The translations under genes were made by a program, and so were the position numbers. From assembly GCA_017462965.1 (NCBI GenBank), contig JAFTQC010000022.1, forward strand, positions 96,242 through 160,241: DNA of 64,000 nt, written 5' to 3'. Shown one piece after another: positions 29,968 to 62,102 of this stretch (the stretch's first letter is position 1; each line of letters starts with the position of its first letter). The notes under the pieces are model-generated. The model saw only the letters and a list, made by a program, of their open reading frames with translations. It was not told the DNA's origin and searched no databases. Source of the DNA: Clostridia bacterium. Lineage in GTDB: Bacteria; Bacillota; Clostridia; TANB77; UBA1234.

Positions 29968-30331
29968 TGGTGGAGATGAGGAGAATCGAACTCCTGTCCG
30001 AAAATTCTTCCACATGAACCTCTCCGAGTGCAGTTTATCTTTTTAGATTCCCAAAGGTTAAACGCCGACAAACAGGCTTTTAATTTTGGTAACTTTATAA
30101 ATACCCACTATCTCAAAGTTTTGATAGTTTTGTTTCCACTTTAGATGACGCTTGTTCTTAATGAAAGTGGCACAAAAAGACAAACGTAGCCGCAACTAGG
30201 CAGCTAAAGCAACTTTATTGTTGTTAATTATTTATAATTCTCACATTTTTTAGATGGCCAAGTGAGAATCCATCACTCGCTATTCATCCTTCTAAATATC
30301 CGTCGAAACCTTTACATCCCCGTGTTTAGAA
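29968..30331 (-). ncRNA. ssrA: tmRNA (SsrA)
   Basis: Minus-strand 5' GGGGATGTAAAGGTTTCGACGGATA..., tag reading frame ending ...VALAA-stop (GTT GCT TTA GCT GCC TAG), 3' T-arm/acceptor GGAGTTCGATTCTCCTCATCTCCACCA; promoter TTGCAA-N17-TTATAAT upstream. Confidence 0.9.
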
Positions 30332-42663: not shown

Positions 42664-42763
42664 AAATTATGTTTACTTTAGCAAGATGCTGTGATATAAT
42701 CCTGCATGGTAAATATCCCTGATATACAGACGTTTTCTACACTAAGAATGTCAATTTTAGGAG

Positions 42764-44398
42764 GTGCAGTATGTGAATCTGAACAATGCAGTCGCAGTTA
42801 AACGGTTGGTTCCGAAAAGCTATCATTTCGATGGCTACAATGAGCTCAATCGTCAGAATTCCCGGGACAAGCCATTTTTCAGTCAGAACACAGTGAGTTT
42901 CGGTGAACGGTACTATCTTCACATAAGACCGTGGGCCGATGAGATTGTATTCCTGGATTTCGAGAGTCCTTGCGGATTTGGACGGATTGCGTTCGAGTCT
43001 TATCATCTCAGTCTTGATGAGTTTGTCAGCAAGCTTACTAAGGCGGTACAGGATGATGCGGACTTCATAACGTTCGAAATTCCGGTGAGGTACAGAGAAC
43101 GGAAGATTTGCGGTGGTTGTGGAACTGAAAACGAGGCATGTATGATGCTTCTGAAGACTAAGCCCAAAAGCGTCATGGCAGCGGTTTCTTTCGACATGGA
43201 TGAGGTAAAATATGCCCTGGCTAGATACCATGGCATTGTAGCTAACAACGAACCAATTAGAGGAGGAATTAACATGAAGGGCAAGAAGAACTTTTTCGGC
43301 ATGAATTTCGAGTTTGGTCGTTCTCGTGACATCAACCTGGCCTCTACGCTGATGGGCGTCGCGGTGCGCAACAGTGCGAGTGGCAATTGGTATGTCTTTG
43401 ATTCTGCGAACAACACCCGGAAGAACCTGGCCAATCTGAAGATGGGCAATTTCCCTGTTTTCCTGTTGCCGGTTGCGCAGCTCTCCGTCGGTGATCTGAC
43501 GAAGATCGACGGTCAGTACTACTACGTTCAGGAGAAGAAGCCGAACAATTCCATGGTGCTGGTGAGCGCGGCCGACGGCTTTGTCCGCGAGATGATTCCG
43601 GAGCAGGGCCTTATTCCTGGCATGAGTATCCATACCAAGGTGGTTGCGTTCGACATCAATTCCATGACGAATCCTTCTTCGAAGGAGAACATGGGTGGCA
43701 GTGTTCTGGCGGCCATGTGCATGATGGGCTGGGCTGATGGCGGCAAGCATGAATTTTCTCTGGACAACATTCAGGATGATTCTTTCAATGGTCTCGGTGC
43801 CTGCCTGCCCATGTTGATGGCGGCGAATAACGGTGGCGATTTCGGCAGTCTTTTCAAGAGTGCCGACGGTAGCCTGAATCTGACGACTCTGATGATGCTG
43901 GGCTCCGATTCTGGTGGAAATGATATGGACAACATGATGCAGCTCGTGGTTCTACAGCAGTTGCTTGGCGGTGGCCAGGGCGGCATGCCGAATATCCTCG
44001 GTCAGAATGTTGTGGTTCCTGGCGCTCCTGTTACTCCTGTAGCTTCGGCTGGCGAGGTATCTGCTGATGAAGTCGAATGCGAGAAGTGTGGCCAGAGCTA
44101 TCCGGCGGGTACGAATTTCTGCCCCAAGTGCGGAGGTAAGACGGCATCCAAGATTACTGTTTGCCGGGCCTGCGGTGCTACGCTCATGAAGGGTGCATCA
44201 TTCTGCCATAAGTGCGGTACCAAGGCTACGCTGACGGTGTGCAGCAAGTGCAATCGCGTTCTGGGCCCCGATGAGCTGTTCTGCATGAATTGTGGTACGA
44301 AGGCCGGCGAAAAGGCTGAGGATACGAATCCCGTCAAAGCATGTGGAGAGCATCCCAAGCTTCCGGAAGTGATCGAATCCGAGCCCTGCAACGGCTGA
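42764..44398 (+). CDS. GC-rich hypothetical protein with C-terminal array of zinc-ribbon motifs
   Basis: C-terminus CEKCG..FCPKCG, CRACG..FCHKCG, CSKCN..FCMNCG; GTG start (42764 or 42773) with aggagg RBS. Confidence 0.65.
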   Translation: MQYVNLNNAVAVKRLVPKSYHFDGYNELNRQNSRDKPFFSQNTVSFGERYYLHIRPWADEIVFLDFESPCGFGRIAFESYHLSLDEFVSKLTKAVQDDADFITFEIPVRYRERKICGGCGTENEACMMLLKTKPKSVMAAVSFDMDEVKYALARYHGIVANNEPIRGGINMKGKKNFFGMNFEFGRSRDINLASTLMGVAVRNSASGNWYVFDSANNTRKNLANLKMGNFPVFLLPVAQLSVGDLTKIDGQYYYVQEKKPNNSMVLVSAADGFVREMIPEQGLIPGMSIHTKVVAFDINSMTNPSSKENMGGSVLAAMCMMGWADGGKHEFSLDNIQDDSFNGLGACLPMLMAANNGGDFGSLFKSADGSLNLTTLMMLGSDSGGNDMDNMMQLVVLQQLLGGGQGGMPNILGQNVVVPGAPVTPVASAGEVSADEVECEKCGQSYPAGTNFCPKCGGKTASKITVCRACGATLMKGASFCHKCGTKATLTVCSKCNRVLGPDELFCMNCGTKAGEKAEDTNPVKACGEHPKLPEVIESEPCNG

Positions 44399-44435: not shown

Positions 44436-44714
44436 ATGGGGCTTAACATCCGCAAACGAGTCCTCATTCATGAGGAAGTGGTTCATAGATGCAAATCTTG
44501 CAACGTCATATTTGGCAAAGATGCTTTGTTTTGCTCTCAATGTGGTAAACCGCTCGAAAAAGAGAAAACAAAAATCTATGCTAATTACGGCAAAAAAGGA
44601 CTTACATCTCTTAGCTATGTCTCGCCTGACGGCACAACGTTCAACACTAAAGGAAAGCTCACTCAAAAAATCGCAGACGGCGTTTCATACACAACGAACA
44701 TGAACAAATCCTGA
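44436..44714 (+). CDS. Small zinc-ribbon protein
   Basis: CKSCN...FCSQCG motif. Confidence 0.55.
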   Translation: MGLNIRKRVLIHEEVVHRCKSCNVIFGKDALFCSQCGKPLEKEKTKIYANYGKKGLTSLSYVSPDGTTFNTKGKLTQKIADGVSYTTNMNKS

Positions 44715-44728
44715 TAATTCAGGACAAC

Positions 44729-44770
44729 AAAAAATGGACAAGGGGACGGTTCTCTTGTCCATTTTTTTTA
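44729..44770 (+). terminator. Rho-independent terminator (repeat-family hairpin)
   Basis: aaaaatggacaag-gggacggttct-cttgtccatttttttt. Confidence 0.7.
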
Positions 44771-44912
44771 GCAAGAGGCAGCAAGAGGGAACGTCATCAA
44801 CGGGGACAGCCCTTTTTGATAAACATAAACATTAATAAAAGTGTAAATTATTTTTACTTATTTATCAAAAAGGGCTGTCCCCGTTGATGACGTTCCCTCT
44901 TGCTGCCTCTTG
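44771..44912. repeat. Compound MITE-like inverted repeat of GGGACAGCCC family (52-bp perfect arms, 37-nt AT-rich centre)
   Basis: 44771-44823 exact reverse complement of 44861-44912. Confidence 0.85.
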
Positions 44913-44980
44913 ATGATTCCGTCTCCATGTCCCAAAAAGGAGCGTCCCTCTTGCTGAAAAAGGAAACGCTCCAATTTGTC

Positions 44981-46204
44981 TTAATACGTGAGCTGCTGGA
45001 TTGTATCTAGCTTTTTTAGCTCGTGCACCAAAATTGATTGGGCGAGCTGGTGAAAGGTGTTAAGTGAAGTGTTTGGAAGGCTTTTCAAAGCCCTTTGCCT
45101 GTAGTAGTATAGAGTGTCATTTACTATTTGATCGAGGCAGGTGAATGTAACGTTCACAGTATGCGGAATCGAAATACCGTTGAGGTGCAACAAATCCTTG
45201 TTTATTGCAGAGGCGAGCAGGTCAAAGTCCAAGTATCCGAATCTAATGGAGCCTTGGAATTTATTGTGAACATTTGTAGGGTCATATACTTTGGCATAAG
45301 GCTTGCCCAAAACTTCTCGAGGGAACGGGCCTGCGCCATGGCGGGTGAGATAGCACCTGCTCATGTAGTAAAGATCCATTTGTCCTTGATAACTCATATC
45401 TGTCAAGCTTTTGAGCACATTTTGAACGCCGGTGTTTGATGTTGTTACGTGAGGAAAGAACTCTTGATTATTCTGATCCAAAAGGAGTCCTTGAGCACCT
45501 TCGAACACGACATCATTGAAACGTGAGAAAATTTCGTTTCCTCGAATGCTTACATTTGCCAAAAATTCTTGCGCGAAGAATGAGAAAAATTCCCAATTCA
45601 TTTGATCACCAAAAGCATCTTGAAATTCTTCTGGTAAATCACATAACTCGAGGCCATATTCTTCGTGAAGACGCTTGGGCACGTATTCATTGCGAATCGC
45701 AGAAAATTTTCTCTGAAGAGTTGCAAACGAGAATAAATCGGTAACTGTAATTTTGAAGTCATCGATTGAGCTTCTTATTACAGTTTCGTTGATTCCTAAG
45801 CCGCAACTACCGTGACGATTTGTACCGCGCATTGTCTCAACAGCTTGATTAATATAGATATCCCAAGGTGTTGTCACGATGGCATCGGGATGTACGAAAA
45901 CATTAGGATGGAGCTCAAATTTTTTCTGAAGCTCACTAAGTTCCATACAAAAAGCCATTGGATTAACTATAAAATCTTCTGAGAGATATGTTTTGGCACC
46001 ATTGAAAGAACCAGATCCAAAGTGGCTGAAAGCATGGCGCTTTCCGTCTTTGGAAATCGCTGTATGCGAAGCTTGTGCTCCACCATTGAACCTAACATTC
46101 AATGTATTGTTGTTGCAAAATCGGCTAGTCATGTGGCCTTTACCTTCGTCGCCCCATAAACTTCCGATTACAACAGAGCATTTGTCCAAGAAACTCACCA
46201 CCAT
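44981..46204 (-). CDS. Divergent adenylosuccinate synthetase (PurA)-like enzyme
   Basis: PurA motifs GSLWGDEGKGH, VFEGAQGLLLD...HVTTSNTG, YLTRHGAGPFP; GC-rich. Confidence 0.75.
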   Translation of the reverse strand: MVVSFLDKCSVVIGSLWGDEGKGHMTSRFCNNNTLNVRFNGGAQASHTAISKDGKRHAFSHFGSGSFNGAKTYLSEDFIVNPMAFCMELSELQKKFELHPNVFVHPDAIVTTPWDIYINQAVETMRGTNRHGSCGLGINETVIRSSIDDFKITVTDLFSFATLQRKFSAIRNEYVPKRLHEEYGLELCDLPEEFQDAFGDQMNWEFFSFFAQEFLANVSIRGNEIFSRFNDVVFEGAQGLLLDQNNQEFFPHVTTSNTGVQNVLKSLTDMSYQGQMDLYYMSRCYLTRHGAGPFPREVLGKPYAKVYDPTNVHNKFQGSIRFGYLDFDLLASAINKDLLHLNGISIPHTVNVTFTCLDQIVNDTLYYYRQRALKSLPNTSLNTFHQLAQSILVHELKKLDTIQQLTY

Positions 46205-46211
46205 TCAATTT

Positions 46212-46268
46212 AGAAATTGGGACGGTCCCTTTTTCCAATTTGGAAAATAGAACCGTCCCAAATTCCAA
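46212..46268. repeat. GGAAATTGGGACGGTCC-type imperfect palindrome inside operon intergenic gap
   Basis: ggaaattgggacggt ... accgtcccaaattcc. Confidence 0.65.
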
Positions 46269-46272
46269 TTAT

Positions 46273-47232
46273 TTAGAAGACGTCAATAGGATGATCATTC
46301 TTCTTATTGGATGCGTCAGTGCTTACGGTTTCTTCGTGATACCGCAGTGCATCACGGACAATGCCTTTGGCACGTTCGCCTTGAATCAGGTCGATTGCCT
46401 CAGTTTTGCTAAGGCCTTCGTACATCTTGATGATTGTAGTGACGAGTTCAGGCATGAACTTGTGGTCGGAAAGGTCGCATGCGTGGCCTTTCATGAGCCT
46501 GCGCCATTCGGAAACTGTGCGCTCAGGATGGTGAGTGTAATAGTTGCCGTGCAGGATGATGTGGTAACAGTAGAACTTCTCCGATGCCATCTCAAGGCAG
46601 TCAGAAGCTGTTACGAGACGTACCGGATGAGGGTCGTTCTTACCAAACACGCTGCGAATCTCCCTGTCCGTCAGGTGGGGCGTGGGACATTCATCACCAA
46701 AAGTGAAGAGAAAACCTTTTTCGCCGCGCTTGTCGACACAGTCCATCTTGATGAACTTGCCAGCGAAGTACCACGGCAGGATGTAGCTTTCGTAGTGGTT
46801 GCCACCACCGCCTTCTTCGAGATAAATTTTCTCGAGCTGTTCGAGGATTCTGATGTCGGCCTCAAACTGAGTGACTTGAAGCGGTGCTTCGTCGTAGCCA
46901 GCAACGTCACCGACGCCCATGAACATGATGTGGGGATCGAAGTTGACGCTGTTATAAATGAGATTGGTCAGACGCGGGAACTCGGTTTTCACGAGACTGA
47001 GCAGGAATCGTGACATGGAACCAGTCACGTCCTCAGCAAAAATGATGCCGCGAGAATTCGGGCTTGTTGCAGAGTCACATGCTTCGCGAGGAAGCTTCAT
47101 TTGTGCCGGATCGAACAGGGGATGCATTTTGGTTTCCTTGAAAACCTGATTTGCAGTCATGACCCTGTCGATGGAACGAGATGCGTAAAAGTTCTTCATG
47201 TCGGAATGAGAAATTCGACCTCCACCACCCAT
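46273..47232 (-). CDS. von Willebrand factor A (vWA) domain protein
   Basis: MIDAS motif DVTGSMS (DxSGS). Confidence 0.65.
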   Translation of the reverse strand: MGGGGRISHSDMKNFYASRSIDRVMTANQVFKETKMHPLFDPAQMKLPREACDSATSPNSRGIIFAEDVTGSMSRFLLSLVKTEFPRLTNLIYNSVNFDPHIMFMGVGDVAGYDEAPLQVTQFEADIRILEQLEKIYLEEGGGGNHYESYILPWYFAGKFIKMDCVDKRGEKGFLFTFGDECPTPHLTDREIRSVFGKNDPHPVRLVTASDCLEMASEKFYCYHIILHGNYYTHHPERTVSEWRRLMKGHACDLSDHKFMPELVTTIIKMYEGLSKTEAIDLIQGERAKGIVRDALRYHEETVSTDASNKKNDHPIDVF

Positions 47233-47256
47233 AAAAAATTCCTCCTTAGATGGTAA

Positions 47257-48309
47257 TTATTTTATCGAAATGTCCAGCGGGACAAATCTTCGTGAGGGGA
47301 AACTTTGGCTTAAAACCTCGTCGTAGATTCCAAATTGCTCGTATGCATTTTTTTCTACAGAAGACGAGTTAAGCCAAGTTGCAAGTGGCTCTGGGACATC
47401 AGTTCTGAAATGTGCACCATTCGGATCACCAAGCAATTCGCGTGCAATACGTTTGATTGCAAGCGAATCAACAGCAAAGTTAGAAAAACCATGCTCCTTG
47501 ACGGATGCAGGGGCAATGTCAAGAATTTCTTTTGGCATCCCTTTGATTTGCTCGTCTGTCCATGTCGAAAAGAACCATCCGCCATACACACCGACAATTC
47601 TGATGTCGTCGAGAGTAACCTTTTGGCCATTTTCAACGAAGTTGCCAGGAGCGAAAAAGAGATTGTCGATTGTGATTGCGTTGTGTGTAATCCCGATGAG
47701 ATCAAGATAACACGCAAAGTAATGAAGCCTTGTGAGAATGGATGTGACAACTTCTGCGCTCAAACTTCCGCCGCAATACTCCAAAATTTCCCGGAGGGGA
47801 TAAATTTTGTTTTTGGGCTTTTTGAGGATGATTGCAAAATCGCCATCTTCGCATTCAAAGTGGCTTGCGAGCTTGGGAAGAGAGTACTTGACTTTATCCC
47901 AAATTTCCTTGGAAATCTTGGTAAAGCTGGATGCTTTCTGAATGTAATTTTCGTAGTATTCTTTGTATTCACTGTGTACCACGAAAATGATGTTCGCATC
48001 AGAAACATACATCGTACCAAGCTTACTGTCGTAGAAGTTGTAGATATTGTAAGAACAATCTGATTGTCCATCCTTTGAAACAAGTTGCAATGTAGATTCA
48101 TGATCCGGGGCCTCAAGCAATTCCAAGGCTTTTCTATAGAGTTGAATGACTTTTTGGCTTGCCATGAAGTGTTTGACTGTATTGTATGGAGCTGGTTTAA
48201 AGAGCTCCAGATACTCGTCGCGCTGCATTTCAAGCGTATCCAAGTTCAGCTCAAATAGTTGCCGTGGAGACGTTGCTCTTATGACTTCATCAGCCGTTTT
48301 GAGTTTCAT
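47257..48309 (-). CDS. Hypothetical protein, possibly kinase-like fold
   Basis: 350 aa; 24-nt gap to vWA gene; segment LDLIGITHNAITIDNLFF weakly reminiscent of kinase catalytic loops; no confident family. Confidence 0.55.
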   Translation of the reverse strand: MKLKTADEVIRATSPRQLFELNLDTLEMQRDEYLELFKPAPYNTVKHFMASQKVIQLYRKALELLEAPDHESTLQLVSKDGQSDCSYNIYNFYDSKLGTMYVSDANIIFVVHSEYKEYYENYIQKASSFTKISKEIWDKVKYSLPKLASHFECEDGDFAIILKKPKNKIYPLREILEYCGGSLSAEVVTSILTRLHYFACYLDLIGITHNAITIDNLFFAPGNFVENGQKVTLDDIRIVGVYGGWFFSTWTDEQIKGMPKEILDIAPASVKEHGFSNFAVDSLAIKRIARELLGDPNGAHFRTDVPEPLATWLNSSSVEKNAYEQFGIYDEVLSQSFPSRRFVPLDISIK

Positions 48310-48422
48310 GTCATCACACCTTTCTAAAATTGGTCGTAAAATTATCGTGAACCGTGTGAAAAACCGATTAAATTAACATAAAATATATACCATAAAAAGC
48401 GTGCTGAGTCAAGTAGCAAGCT

Positions 48423-48446
48423 AGCAAGAGGGACGCCCCTCTTGCT
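48423..48446. repeat. Short GGGACGCCCC hairpin
   Basis: agcaagagggacgcccctcttgct. Confidence 0.7.
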
Positions 48447-48455
48447 AGAAAAAAA

Positions 48456-48490
48456 GCACCCCACACGTATTTGTGCGGGGTGCAGTAGTA
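48456..48490 (-). terminator. Stem-loop gcaccccacacg...cgtgtggggtgc with T-run on minus strand
   Basis: Perfect inverted repeat then aaaaaaa (plus) downstream of 48497 gene. Confidence 0.65.
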
Positions 48491-48496
48491 GAATAG

Positions 48497-49264
48497 TTAT
48501 TCTTCTTTTTCGGCTTCGGTAGCTTCAGCAGGCACATCAGAGACTACGAGATGTTCCATGGCGTATTTCACGCCTTCGACATAGCCTTGGCTGTGACCTT
48601 CGTCGAAACCGTATTCATACGTATCATCCATACCCTGGCCAAAGCCGGCTGTACGTCCTTCGACGTAACCTTCGTCGTATCCTTTCTTAAAACCGGCATC
48701 ATATGCCTCTTTCTCACGAGCAGCATCAGGATGCTTTTCGGCATCTTCCTTGGAGATATTGAATATTGCCATATTCTTCGTGGTGGTATACTCCTCGCAA
48801 AGGGATTTGATGCGATTTACTACATATTTGATGCCTTTGATGATCAGGAAAAGAATGCCGTAGAAGATGTAGTAGAGCAGAATAGTAGAAATGGCCAATA
48901 CAGTTACAAAAGCAGCATAGTACGAGAACATGCCCTTATCAGACTCAAAGTGATACGTTCCGTCGGGATTGAGCGTTGCTGTAGCACTTTCAAATGTGCT
49001 GCGAGCGTTGAGTTCCACGACAGAACCCTCCATCTCCAGAGTGTAGCGCGAGGTGTCGATGCCGACAGCAGGATTCTCGATGTACTCCCTGAGCTCGTTC
49101 TCACAAGCAAGGACTCCTTCATCAGTAGAAGGATAGACATTGCTGATGCAGAAAGAAAAAGAGAGGATCAGCGCGAGGCAAAACAAGATAGCTTTTTTGA
49201 GCTGTCCGCTGTACTTATGCCCCATGGTCTGAAGCGTCTGAGCGTTAGCCGACCGATTCTTCAT
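48497..49264 (-). CDS. Membrane protein with C-terminal GF.KGYDEGYVEG repeats
   Basis: Signal/TM, internal TM ILLYYIFYGILFLII, repeats AGFKKGYDEGYVEG/YGFDEGHSQGYVEG. Confidence 0.55.
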   Translation of the reverse strand: MKNRSANAQTLQTMGHKYSGQLKKAILFCLALILSFSFCISNVYPSTDEGVLACENELREYIENPAVGIDTSRYTLEMEGSVVELNARSTFESATATLNPDGTYHFESDKGMFSYYAAFVTVLAISTILLYYIFYGILFLIIKGIKYVVNRIKSLCEEYTTTKNMAIFNISKEDAEKHPDAAREKEAYDAGFKKGYDEGYVEGRTAGFGQGMDDTYEYGFDEGHSQGYVEGVKYAMEHLVVSDVPAEATEAEKEE

Positions 49265-49359: not shown

Positions 49360-49425
49360 CGTCCATTTGACGGACGTCCGCCATGGACGAAAAAAAGGAC
49401 AAGAGCCCCGTCCCCTTGTCCTTTT
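49360..49425. repeat. GACGGACGTCC unit followed by GGACAAG-AGCCCCGTCCC-CTTGTCC hairpin
   Basis: Read directly; second hairpin doubles as terminator of 49424 gene. Confidence 0.75.
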
Positions 49426-50500
49426 ATTTTAAAATTGGTTTCAGTAAAAAGTCACGAACTAAAATTAACAGTTTTGCTGAAACGTATGTAAGAGCTATTG
49501 TTATGAGAACCATGATAATCATGTGATAGTCCAAATACATATACATCATCTTGTCGGTGATACTTGAAATCAAATACATTTCAAAAGAGCAAATTGAAAT
49601 TTCTGAAATTATTTTTCCGACAACAGGAATTTTTTTATTCAAATCATAAAATGCTAAAAAGATAAATGTTGCTGTAAGTGCAGTTGGCAAAGCTTCGAAG
49701 CCATTGAAGTTAAACCATGCATATTGCTCTGGTGTAGATAAGATATAGCAAGATAAGCAAGTTAAGCCAAGTGATGTTAATGGCAACAAAATCCTTTGAT
49801 ACAACTTCAAATTTGGTCTATATTCATGAATGTATTTTCCTATAAAAAAGTAGGTTAGAGGATAAGCAATTTGCCAGTAATCTGGCGTAATGTTAAGCCA
49901 CATGTCGTATGCTTTGAATGTTTTTACAACTTGTGGAAGAAATGTCAAAAACGCTAAACTTCCAATCAAAATTTGTTTGTATTTTTTATCTTTTAAATTA
50001 TCATACAAGATATTTAAAAATGGAATCAGCAAGAATAATCCGATGTACATTTCAAAATACCATGCATATCCATTTGCGCTGAAATTCAAAATGTTAATAA
50101 CTGAAAGTCCAATATTAATAGGCGTTTTACTATAAATTGCGGTTGCAATAATTTCTACGATACAAATTGCAACGTAGGAAAAAATCAGAGGAATTATTCC
50201 TTTATAGTATTTTTTTGAAATTTCTTTTTTGTTATTTAAAAATCCGGTAAGTAGCATAAATAGCGGAACTGCGGTCATTGCTAAAAATCTAAAAATCATG
50301 TAAATTGTCCATTTAAAAGATAGTTGGTCTACATTCATCACTCCGCGTAAATTAATGCTATGAGTTATAAAAACAAAAAGAATTGCTAGAACTCTCAAAA
50401 TATCAAGACCTAAGATGCGTTCTTTTTTAGTTTTTGTAGGAACAACGGCCAACTCTTTTTTTAGTTCATCTTTTTCTATAATAGTTGTTTTCAAAAACAT
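49424..50500 (-). CDS. Acyltransferase family 3 membrane protein
   Basis: 358 aa, ~10 TM helices, N-terminal LDILRVLAILFVFITHS. Confidence 0.65.
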   Translation of the reverse strand: MFLKTTIIEKDELKKELAVVPTKTKKERILGLDILRVLAILFVFITHSINLRGVMNVDQLSFKWTIYMIFRFLAMTAVPLFMLLTGFLNNKKEISKKYYKGIIPLIFSYVAICIVEIIATAIYSKTPINIGLSVINILNFSANGYAWYFEMYIGLFLLIPFLNILYDNLKDKKYKQILIGSLAFLTFLPQVVKTFKAYDMWLNITPDYWQIAYPLTYFFIGKYIHEYRPNLKLYQRILLPLTSLGLTCLSCYILSTPEQYAWFNFNGFEALPTALTATFIFLAFYDLNKKIPVVGKIISEISICSFEMYLISSITDKMMYMYLDYHMIIMVLITIALTYVSAKLLILVRDFLLKPILK

Positions 50501-50538
50501 CCCTCCTCCTGCAATCAGTATTTTATCATAATACTACA

Positions 50539-50614
50539 AAAAAGGACAAGGGGACGGGGCTTTTGTCCTTTTTCGTCCCAATTTCCAAAAAAAAGATCAC
50601 CAGTTAAGGTGATC
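50539..50614. repeat. GGACAAGGGGACGGGGC hairpin + partial GTCCCAATTTCC unit + gatcacc hairpin
   Basis: Read directly. Confidence 0.7.
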
Positions 50615-51403: not shown

Positions 51404-51470
51404 CTAGCAATGGGGACAGCCCTTTTTGCTAAAAATTTCAGCAAAAAGGGGCGTCCCTCTTGCAAGATTC
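51404..51470. repeat. Hybrid imperfect palindrome (GGGACAGCCC left / GGGGCGTCCC right)
   Basis: gcaatggggacagccctttttgctaaaa / ttttcagcaaaaaggggcgtccctcttgc. Confidence 0.7.
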
Positions 51471-51554: not shown

Positions 51555-52187
51555 ATGAAAAAAACACAAGCGACTGATAAACAACAAAGGGTGCTTGATT
51601 ATGTTAAAGAACAAATAAAAAAGGATGGATATGCTCCGTCTGTTAGAGAGATTTGTAAAGCTTTAGACTTGAAATCAACTTCAACGGTTCATGGATATTT
51701 AGCTAGACTTGAAAAGAAGGGATTAATTCAAAAGGCTGCATTAAAGCCTAGAACTCTTAGAATTGTTGGTGCTGCCGGCGATGATGAAGAAAAAGGATTC
51801 TACACTTCAAAAGAGATGGTTGATGTGCCAATAGTAGGGAAAGTTACAGCGGGTATGCCAATACTTGCTGTGGAAAATATTGAAGATAGTTTCCCACTTC
51901 CAGTTGATTTTGTTGGAAATTCAGAATCATTCATGCTTAAAGTTAGAGGTGATAGCATGATTGATGCGGGAATATTAGATGGTGACTTGGTTCTTGTAAA
52001 AAAACAAAATACTGCACAAAATGGAGACATTGTTGTTGCTTTGATTGAAGATGAAGCGACGGTTAAAAAATTCTATAAAGAAAAAGGCTTTATTAGACTA
52101 CAACCACAAAACCAATTTATGCAGCCAATACTTGTTCCAACATGTACTATTCTTGGTAAAGTTGCTGGTGTTTTTAGAAAGTTATAA
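51555..52187 (+). CDS. lexA: LexA repressor
   Basis: [17 protein letters not shown]...; S24 motifs VRGDSM and K; RBS gggagg. Confidence 0.85.
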
Positions 52188-52245
52188 AATTGGAAATTGG
52201 GACGGGTCTGTTTTCTAAATGCATTTTTAAGGGACGTTCCAAATG
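52186..52245. repeat. TTGGAAATTGGGACGG unit plus GGGACGTTCC partial
   Basis: Read directly. Confidence 0.55.
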
Positions 52246-53699: not shown

Positions 53700-53730
53700 A
53701 AGTATTGAATCAACCCCCGGGGAAGGAGTC

Positions 53731-53823
53731 ATCAAGAGGGACAGCCCTTTTTGATAAAGGTAAATGCTAATTAAAGCGCAAATTTTGTTTATTTTTTATC
53801 AAAAAGGGCTGTCCCTCTTGATA
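53731..53823. repeat. Compound inverted repeat of GGGACAGCCC family (28-bp arms, ~36-nt AT-rich centre)
   Basis: atcaagagggacagccctttttgataaa ... tttatcaaaaagggctgtccctcttgat. Confidence 0.8.
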
Positions 53824-53852
53824 GAAAATCCCCGATGGTCGATCAAGAAACT

Positions 53853-62047: not shown

Positions 62048-62102
62048 AATTGGAAATTGGGACGGTTCCTTTTTGGGAGAGGGACCGTCCCAATTTCCAA
62101 AA
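62048..62102 (+). terminator. Rho-independent terminator (repeat-family hairpin)
   Basis: ttggaaattgggacggttcc...ggaccgtcccaatttccaa. Confidence 0.65.

Follow-up and report, generated by a model that had tools for sequence, protein, structure and literature searches.

Gene content of the locus

The locus described here lies in a 64,000-nucleotide (nt) window of the genome of a Clostridia bacterium (contig JAFTQC010000022.1; all coordinates are those of this window), in which three genes on the minus strand, named A, B and C, face two genes on the plus strand, E and D. Gene C (44981..46204, minus strand) is a 407-aa open reading frame (ORF) encoding an enzyme of the adenylosuccinate synthetase (PurA) superfamily (PF00709) that falls in a separate clade. 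It is preceded by gene B (46273..47232, minus strand), a 319-aa ORF for a protein of predicted von Willebrand factor A (vWA) fold with a site resembling the metal-ion-dependent adhesion site (MIDAS; D68-x-T70-G-S72, T121 and D180), and by gene A (47257..48309, minus strand), a 350-aa ORF combining a degenerate J domain (approximately residues 1-65) with a domain of predicted kinase fold that appears catalytically dead. Gene D (44436..44714, plus strand), convergent with C, encodes a 92-aa zinc-ribbon protein, and gene E (42773..44398, plus strand) a 541-aa protein whose GTG start (42773) lies 8 nt past a GGAGG. A, B and C belong to a module of bacteria and phages of which the B-C pair (vWA gene, then PurA-like gene) is the invariant core, the first partner being variable.

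By ORF calling, 24 nt separate A from B and 68 nt separate B from C, in line with the three-gene operon described in a first-pass annotation of this DNA, made from the sequence alone. Public gene calls for the identical contig agreed with the GTG start of E (also 541 aa) and placed the start of C five codons later, at a TTG (46189) preceded by the Shine-Dalgarno-like GGTGGTGA, which gives a protein of 402 aa; the B-C gap could therefore be 83 nt.

Protein C and the PurA superfamily

Protein C matched PF00709 (E = 6.5e-44) over profile positions 1-314 of 416 only, and reached neither the cut-off of the PurA equivalog model (TIGR00184; 124.8 bits, cut-off 395.55) nor that of the PurZ model (NF038379; 40.9 bits, cut-off 300). 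The window copy carries the motifs GDEGKG, NGGAQASHT, FEGAQG, TTSN and TRHGAGPFP exactly as quoted in the first-pass annotation, and is the clearly divergent homolog recognized there.

To place C in the superfamily, 76 bacterial and three phage C proteins were aligned with MAFFT together with four canonical PurA proteins (E. coli, Listeria and two others) and the PurZ of phage phiVC8; residue numbers of C are those of E. coli PurA. The C family retained G12-D13-E14-G15-K16-G17, H41, Q224, T239 and D333, with the GTP P-loop and the catalytic D13 and H41 invariant in all 76 bacterial and three phage sequences. It also shared six invariant changes (N38Q, T128S, T129C, V273H, G298Q and K331C); N38, T128 and T129 are ligands of the 5'-phosphate of inosine monophosphate (IMP) in PurA, together with R143, which was not conserved in the C family. 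In the aspartate loop, T301 was replaced by L, I or M, a four-residue deletion (its placement dependent on the alignment) removed G302-R305, and one arginine was found, versus three in canonical PurA (R303, R305 and R306). From this pattern, the phosphotransfer and 6-oxopurine chemistry of C looks intact, and its 5'-phosphate and aspartate pockets look remodelled.

In a distance-based neighbour-joining (NJ) tree with the four canonical PurA proteins and the single PurZ as outgroup, the C family, phage members included, was monophyletic in 50 of 50 bootstraps and canonical PurA in 48 of 50. Mean identity of the C family was about 24% to PurA and 17-20% to the PurZ of phiVC8. C did not cluster with ordinary PurA, such clustering being part of what the first-pass annotation had named as contrary to its reading, and stood apart from PurZ as well (50/50). 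On this sequence evidence, C represents a separate, third clade of the PurA superfamily, neither PurA nor PurZ.

Proteins A and B

Searches with A against Pfam, NCBIfam, PHROGs and PADLOC gave nothing useful, those with B gave no matches in Pfam, NCBIfam and PADLOC and one unnamed family in PHROGs, and comparison of both sequences with PDB chains returned chance matches only. As A and B were without family matches, their homologs were gathered and their structures predicted.

The predicted structure of A adopts a kinase fold. Its catalytic loop reads H-N-x-I-T-x-D-N, written HN(A/G)I(T/S)x(D)(N/T) across homologs, the DFG position is occupied by 'GGW', and the conserved beta-3 lysine was not found in the alignment of homologs. 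As A lacks the VAIK lysine, the HRD aspartate and the DFG aspartate, it is best called a pseudokinase, as far as its sequence indicates. Residues 1-65 consist of helix-loop-helix elements, within which 'WHPD' occurs in distant homologs, and the Pfam DnaJ model gave weak matches, below the curated cut-off, on the A homologs of Clostridium carboxidivorans and others; these two features together point to a J domain joined to a pseudokinase. The HPD motif was kept in 47 of 50 distant A homologs and lost in all 21 members of the window's clade (K/R-P-x), the window protein having K-P-A in its place. The kinase-like nature suspected for the 350-aa protein in the first-pass annotation was thus recovered in the predicted fold, though as a pseudokinase with a degenerate J domain.

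For B, the predicted structure shows a vWA fold. Its metal site, in the variant form D68-x-T70-x-S72 with T121 and D180, was invariant or near-invariant among 127 sequences, so that the vWA protein with a MIDAS called earlier was upheld, with a conserved predicted metal site in the variant form D68-x-T70-G-S72. Among the same 127 sequences, more than 20 polar residues were invariant, 126 proteins began with Met-Gly (the lone exception being cut by a contig end), and 88 ended in F or L. The Met-Gly start is common to bacteria and to all three phage groups. Judged by its alignment, B is conserved in the manner of a ligand-binding or catalytic protein. The family is also large, with 1252 representatives at E ≤ 1e-3 and 248 at E ≤ 1e-30 among 1.84 billion cluster representatives.

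Distribution and gene order in bacteria and plasmids

A scan with the B alignment over one genome per species gave 346 loci among 185,579 species genomes. Gene order was counted in the best 80 of these 346 genomic loci, and ORFs at the fetched loci were called by a simple longest-ORF rule. Among the best 80, C was present in 79 and A in 68, in the order A-B-C. The taxa concerned include uncultured gut Clostridia, Clostridium (carboxidivorans P7, drakei and butyricum), Melainabacteria/Obscuribacterales, Proteobacteria (Dyella, Massilia and Roseomonas), Acidobacteria, Geobacter and Nitrospirae. As the same gene order recurs across phyla and phages, the A-B-C linkage is far beyond chance. The neighbourhoods of the homologs, which the first-pass annotation had singled out as decisive, were almost always linked to vWA and kinase-like genes; C also forms a clade of its own. 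The claim made there of a non-housekeeping arrangement is supported to this extent, and the module is probably not one of housekeeping purine synthesis.

In most cases the first partner is A, the J-domain pseudokinase; a true Ser/Thr kinase sometimes occupies this place, as does an E-core or Met-rich protein in some phages. The true kinases were found in two Melainabacteria (L077:8412-9626 and L083:8413-9627), where an active Ser/Thr kinase carrying GxGxxG, YRDLKPSN and DFG replaces A upstream of B-C.

Relatives of B were also found on 21 large plasmids, 15 of which were predicted to be non-mobilizable. On the conjugative plasmid pAtS4e of Allorhizobium ampelinum S4, A, B and C overlap and a divergent NUDIX gene lies upstream. 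The same plasmid carries genes for an AAA ATPase, DUF5682 and DUF4132 downstream of C (L147:8405-12849) and a type VI secretion system VgrG gene upstream; the AAA ATPase, DUF5682 and DUF4132 genes may constitute an unrelated adjoining system.

Phage and viral copies

B-like and C-like genes went together 1:1 in phages of three host genera, namely about 200 of Mycobacterium (cluster C1, Bixzunavirus), 10 of Rhizobium and six of Vibrio. In phage Caravan the order is gp251 (A homolog), gp252 (B homolog), a small ORF and gp254 ('PurA-like'). Gp251, annotated as a 'serine/threonine kinase', matched A by hhalign (95% probability, E = 3.6e-8) and has the HPD motif.

In IMG/VR, 47 contigs bore B, many of them 100-490 kb long; C was adjacent in 45 of the 47, A was present in 24, and a Met-rich protein similar to the one in Vibrio phage Va1 lay directly upstream of B in six. 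Phages without A have homologous 240-265-aa proteins with a Met/Gly-rich tail directly upstream of B-C, as in Vibrio phage Va1 (L087:5219-5932, in an unannotated gap) and Rhizobium phage RHph_TM40 (EVB94_016; L088:4771-5565). In the latter phage, a small HIRAN-domain protein (EVB94_017; L088:5676-5993; Pfam E = 4.7e-6) is encoded directly before the vWA gene.

Association with NAD and ADP-ribose genes

At distant loci the commonest neighbour of the module was an NrtR-type regulator (NUDIX plus NrtR_WHD, E = 2.9e-26), present at 27 of 60 and mostly directly upstream; in the one representative sequence read, its Nudix catalytic glutamates were replaced. ADP-ribose releases NrtR from DNA (PMC9503650). 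In a Pfam census of 144 flanking genes, the highest-ranking families were NUDIX (15), NrtR_WHD (14) and AraR_C (11), then NAPRTase/NAMPT (4) and isochorismatase/PncA-like (4). Clostridium loci had the order pncA-like gene, NAMPT gene, A-B-C, with a microbial PARG gene between NAMPT and A in two of them.

Similar genes accompany the phage copies. A NADAR gene lies a short way upstream of the module in Vibrio phage Va1, and RHph_TM40 has phosphoribosyltransferase-like and NMNAT/Nudix genes about 3 kb upstream. Among the IMG/VR viral contigs, NAMPT was found in two, PncA in three and NADAR in three.

Zinc-ribbon proteins E and D

E comprises a conserved N-terminal domain, a central domain here called the E-core, a Met/Gly-rich stretch and three C-terminal zinc ribbons, the last with Pfam matches to DZR/zinc ribbon families. 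The zinc-ribbon matches of D were weak, all below curated cut-offs. Outside the window's clade, in which A has lost HPD, D and E do not accompany A-B-C; within it they lie either convergent downstream or divergent upstream. That D and E were rearranged in this way and yet stayed linked to the trio is an argument for all five genes belonging together in this clade, and the window carries a five-gene form of a widespread module.

The E profile also matched ORFs directly upstream of B-C in two viral contigs (L138 and L143), over profile positions 196-361, i.e. the central domain. When E was compared with the Met-rich phage proteins of Va1 (Vibrio) and RHph_TM40 (Rhizobium), HMMER gave no match and hhalign returned probabilities of 17%, 2% and 70%, in the low-complexity tail only. 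Homology of E to these Met-rich proteins is thus only suggested by these comparisons.

Expression signals, repeats and flanking regions

A promoter-like site for A-B-C (TTGACT-17 nt-TATATA, with a TGn ahead of the -10 element) was read by eye at 48384..48412 (minus strand); it was missed by a consensus scan, which demands T at position 6, and is given here as a putative promoter, by inference only. A promoter-like site for E-D (TTTACT-17 nt-TATAAT with a TG; 10 of 12 consensus matches) lies at 42672..42700 (plus strand). Right after the stop codon of C, a hairpin followed by a U-run (44938..44972, minus strand), the first hairpin in the fold of 44985-44715, is likely to be the operon terminator. 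The first-pass annotation had also placed a repeat hairpin in the B-C gap, where a very stable structure was indeed predicted (46210-46268, minus strand; RNA free energy -36.1 kcal/mol, z = -6.97; inverted repeat I13 of the GGGACGG palindrome family).

The intergenic region between the convergent genes D and C (44715-44985) is strongly folded (-150 kcal/mol, z = -18.9) and holds a perfect 52-nt inverted repeat (44772..44912, without strand; repeats I1, D3 and I6), a related copy of which lies at 53728-53824 (77% identity over 53728-53808). More widely, GGGACGG...CCC and CAAGAGGGAC are the cores of a G+C-rich palindromic intergenic repeat family between 40.8 and 53.8 kb, with copies at 44730-44765, 46206-46241, 48418-48449, 49391-49426, 50538-50573, 51404-51469, 52186-52221 and 53728-53824, and also at 62081-62091. 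Many copies also act, by their sequence, as terminator-like hairpins, and the family looks like a repetitive extragenic palindrome (REP) or a miniature inverted-repeat transposable element (MITE) of the source genome. The repeats were considered as borders of the cassette and rejected, as the same palindromes occupy many intergenic regions window-wide; the description of the operon as bordered by mobile-looking repeats did not stand.

The cassette has a G+C content of 46.1%, against about 36% in its flanks and 33.9% in the whole window. Among the loci L007-L026 that were checked, the five-gene cassettes of low-GC gut Clostridia were 4 to 14 points richer in G+C than their flanks (at L016, 0.473 versus 0.329); cassette and flanks were equal at Clostridium and Melainabacteria loci, and proteobacterial loci were only 2 to 6 points richer. 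Between 4000 and 30000 of the window, where G+C content is 27-34%, most 2-kb windows showed a G-over-C skew of +0.22 to +0.38 with a positive A-over-T skew, the skew being weaker and patchier across most of 34-58 kb.

No integrase or transposase gene was found near the cassette, which is flanked by the chromosomal genes LexA, CtsR, DUF1385 and Fe-ADH, and the synteny on the E side is retained in a 77%-identical relative whose contig begins at A. A mobile-element setting was rejected on these three grounds. Within the window's clade the insertion sites differ (ruvAB/dcw, der/plsY and LexA/DUF1385). The earlier statement that the DNA was horizontally acquired therefore draws its support from the G+C content and from the differing insertion sites in other lineages.

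The gene upstream of A (48497-49264, minus strand) encodes a 255-aa membrane protein. The protein has a hydrophobic segment, G(F/Y)xxGYxEG repeats in its C-terminal part, and FliH and Yae1_N matches that were weak and all far under their cut-offs. The gene ends in a strong intrinsic terminator (48456..48483, minus strand) with an 11-bp stem of which eight pairs are G-C, followed by TTTTTTT. This gene had been put forward as an associated effector or sensor and was rejected in that role, as the terminator separates it from A and it is missing at the other loci with a readable upstream side.

An Rfam search revealed no riboswitch or other RNA family near the operon, the sole match in the window being a complete transfer-messenger RNA gene (29968-30321, minus strand; RF00023, 164 bits).

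Proposed function and alternative explanations

In the reading favoured here, which is tentative, the module may encode a purine-nucleotide ligase linked to NAD/ADP-ribose and assisted by chaperones, whose amine substrate is something other than free aspartate. With GTP as donor, C would phosphorylate a purine nucleotide at its 6-oxo group, a step suggested by the retention of the P-loop, D13, K16, H41, Q224, T239 and D333, and would then couple that carbon to an amine other than free L-aspartate. The MIDAS metal site of B may hold a carboxylate-bearing partner or substrate for C, and A would scaffold the complex and, where its HPD motif is intact, recruit DnaK/Hsp70. In the window's clade, where HPD is lost, the zinc-ribbon protein E together with D may assume the role of the DnaK partner. 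In many lineages ADP-ribose, acting via NrtR, probably switches the operon on, i.e. during NAD+ breakdown, and phages may carry the module for the same metabolic situation.

Several observations weigh against this proposal. The NJ tree has few outgroups (four PurA and one PurZ), and the four-residue deletion in C, as set by MAFFT, could shift, so that the exclusion of aspartate is not proven; PurZ itself has a divergent aspartate loop and yet uses aspartate. D333 is kept but K331 is Cys in C, so the phosphoryl donor is not certain. The scan, confined to the 64-kb window of this metagenome-assembled genome (MAG), found no second PurA match. No NrtR or NAD genes adjoin the window cassette, and the NAD/ADP-ribose link is borrowed from distant relatives. 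In addition, the IMG/VR contigs may include misassigned bacterial DNA.

That C is instead a true adenylosuccinate synthetase isozyme (IMP + aspartate + GTP), boosting AMP/ATP and hence NAD+ resynthesis with A and B regulating or stabilising it, is possible, if on the unlikely side. The residues kept in C (D13, K16, H41, Q224, T239 and the GTP P-loop) would suit such an isozyme, as would NAD-salvage neighbours that need ATP and phosphoribosyl pyrophosphate, the commonness of nucleotide-metabolism genes in large phages and the PurZ precedent of a divergent loop that still binds aspartate; all C proteins, however, share a signature foreign to PurA (Q38, S128, C129, H273, Q298, C331 and the loss of G302-R305, with R143 not conserved), and C reaches 124.8 of the 395.55 bits set for the equivalog. 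A vWA partner that is obligate and translationally coupled in different phyla and in phages would also be superfluous for an ordinary metabolic isozyme, and the Rfam search found no purine riboswitch or other RNA regulator near the operon.

A role in anti-phage defence or abortive infection, in which the vWA protein or the pseudokinase would act as a sensor and trigger C to make a toxic or signalling nucleotide, is close to the conflict system proposed in the first-pass annotation and seems unlikely. The patchy distribution (346 matches among 185,579 species genomes), the varied chromosomal sites, a G+C content above that of the flanks in low-GC hosts and the plasmid copies would fit it, as would the resemblance to kinase and vWA triads and the occurrence of NrtR-like regulators with vWA proteins in predicted anti-ADP-ribosylation conflict systems (PMC9503650). 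PADLOC-DB v2 models, however, matched none of the eight region proteins, all five cassette proteins included, the neighbours are housekeeping or NAD-salvage genes rather than recurrent defence islands, and the module has no obvious effector (nuclease, pore or NADase). Moreover, it is a fixed part of about 200 virulent phages of Mycobacterium and occurs in large Vibrio and Rhizobium phages, a distribution that fits counter-defence or metabolism better than host immunity. With these points, the conflict-system reading is unproven.

A more specific form of the proposed ligase activity, in which C would link C6 of the purine nucleotide to B itself, at the alpha-amino group of its N-terminal glycine, or to a client on the metal site of B, appears more doubtful still. 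It is raised because 126 of 127 B proteins start with Met-Gly and C has lost most of the aspartate-holding arginines, and because B-C adjacency is constant and translational coupling frequent. The resulting conjugate, of a protein-N6-adenylate type, would be a post-translational modification that is not known to have been described.

PurA falls in the SIMIBI P-loop class, which includes metallochaperone GTPases. That C is a ligase-dead SIMIBI-type GTPase which, together with the vWA protein, delivers metals or assembles complexes (cf. CobW/UreG chaperones, MoxR-vWA) is most improbable: vWA proteins do partner NTPase chaperones (PMC7824862) and C has the new invariant residues C129, H273 and C331, but its purine-lactam residues D13, H41, Q224 and T239 are invariant, which a pure GTPase switch would not need, and no metal-enzyme client genes recurred nearby in the 144-gene census.

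Should C make a new nucleotide or nucleotide-protein adduct, this would be a new reaction in purine biochemistry, and the module would then be a new player in the NAD+/ADP-ribose arms race between bacteria and their phages. Culturable carriers exist (Clostridium carboxidivorans P7, Allorhizobium ampelinum S4 and Mycobacterium smegmatis phages) and the module is small and soluble, which makes it directly testable.

Comparison with known systems

C shares the PF00709 superfamily with PurA (EC 6.3.4.4) and keeps GDEGKG, D13, H41, Q224, T239 and D333, but differs from it in its low identity (about 24%), its separate clade, a third of the equivalog score, changed IMP-phosphate ligands, an aspartate loop four residues shorter (G302-R305) and a vWA gene that is always coupled.

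The TerY-P triads, reportedly described by Anantharaman et al. in 2012, are said to be predicted systems of a vWA protein, a Ser/Thr kinase and a PP2C phosphatase. As in these triads, a vWA gene is coupled in the module to a kinase-fold gene, the kinase being active at two loci; unlike them, the module is without a phosphatase gene, its kinase is usually a J-domain-fused pseudokinase, and its third part is a PurA-like ligase. The analogy drawn in the first-pass annotation is reasonable, because A is replaced by a real Ser/Thr kinase at the two Melainabacteria loci.

Full-text searches returned no paper on this gene combination, with two possibly relevant papers outside their coverage, and the A-B-C set is apparently undescribed as a system. 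A survey of jumbo phages by the Aravind group covers DnaJ and MoxR-vWA, not the A-B-C set (PMC7824862). Rki of phage RB43 is reported to be a phage J-domain protein that engages host DnaK (PMC3486835); in this it resembles A, whose Mycobacterium phage homolog keeps HPD. It differs in that A joins its J domain to a pseudokinase and has vWA and PurA-like proteins encoded alongside, the window copy being without HPD.

PurA was thought to have one job until its PurZ paralog was shown to rewrite phage DNA chemistry. PurZ is a phage paralog of PurA that makes a non-canonical product, 2-aminoadenine (Z-genome), and a 2026 survey of PurZ groups other phage PF00709 proteins as 'PurA homologs' (PMC12884076). 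Like C, it is carried by phages and sets a precedent for new chemistry in the fold. From the PurZ-type paralogs named for comparison in the first-pass annotation C is distinct: it does not group with PurZ in the NJ tree, is 17-20% identical to it and misses the NF038379 cut-off (40.9 versus 300 bits). None of the PurZ partners datZ, mazZ and dpoZ was seen at the module loci examined, and PurZ phages are without vWA and pseudokinase partners (phiVC8 map). C forms a third branch of the fold, marked by an invariant active-site signature of its own and by its coupling to genes for a vWA protein and a J-domain pseudokinase.

The closest published concept is that of the ARG-centric systems, which combine Nudix-helix-turn-helix (NrtR-like) or WYL regulators with vWA 'peptide-binding chaperones' and for which reversal of viral ADP-ribosylation has been predicted (Iyer et al. 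2022, PMC9503650). That paper contains no mention of adenylosuccinate, PurA or DnaJ/J-domain proteins. The module differs from these systems in its PurA-like enzyme and in that ADP-ribosylglycohydrolase is not among its 25 commonest neighbour families, and shares with them a vWA part, a chaperone theme and, at other loci than that of the window, an adjacent NrtR-like regulator and Macro/PARG or NADAR neighbours.

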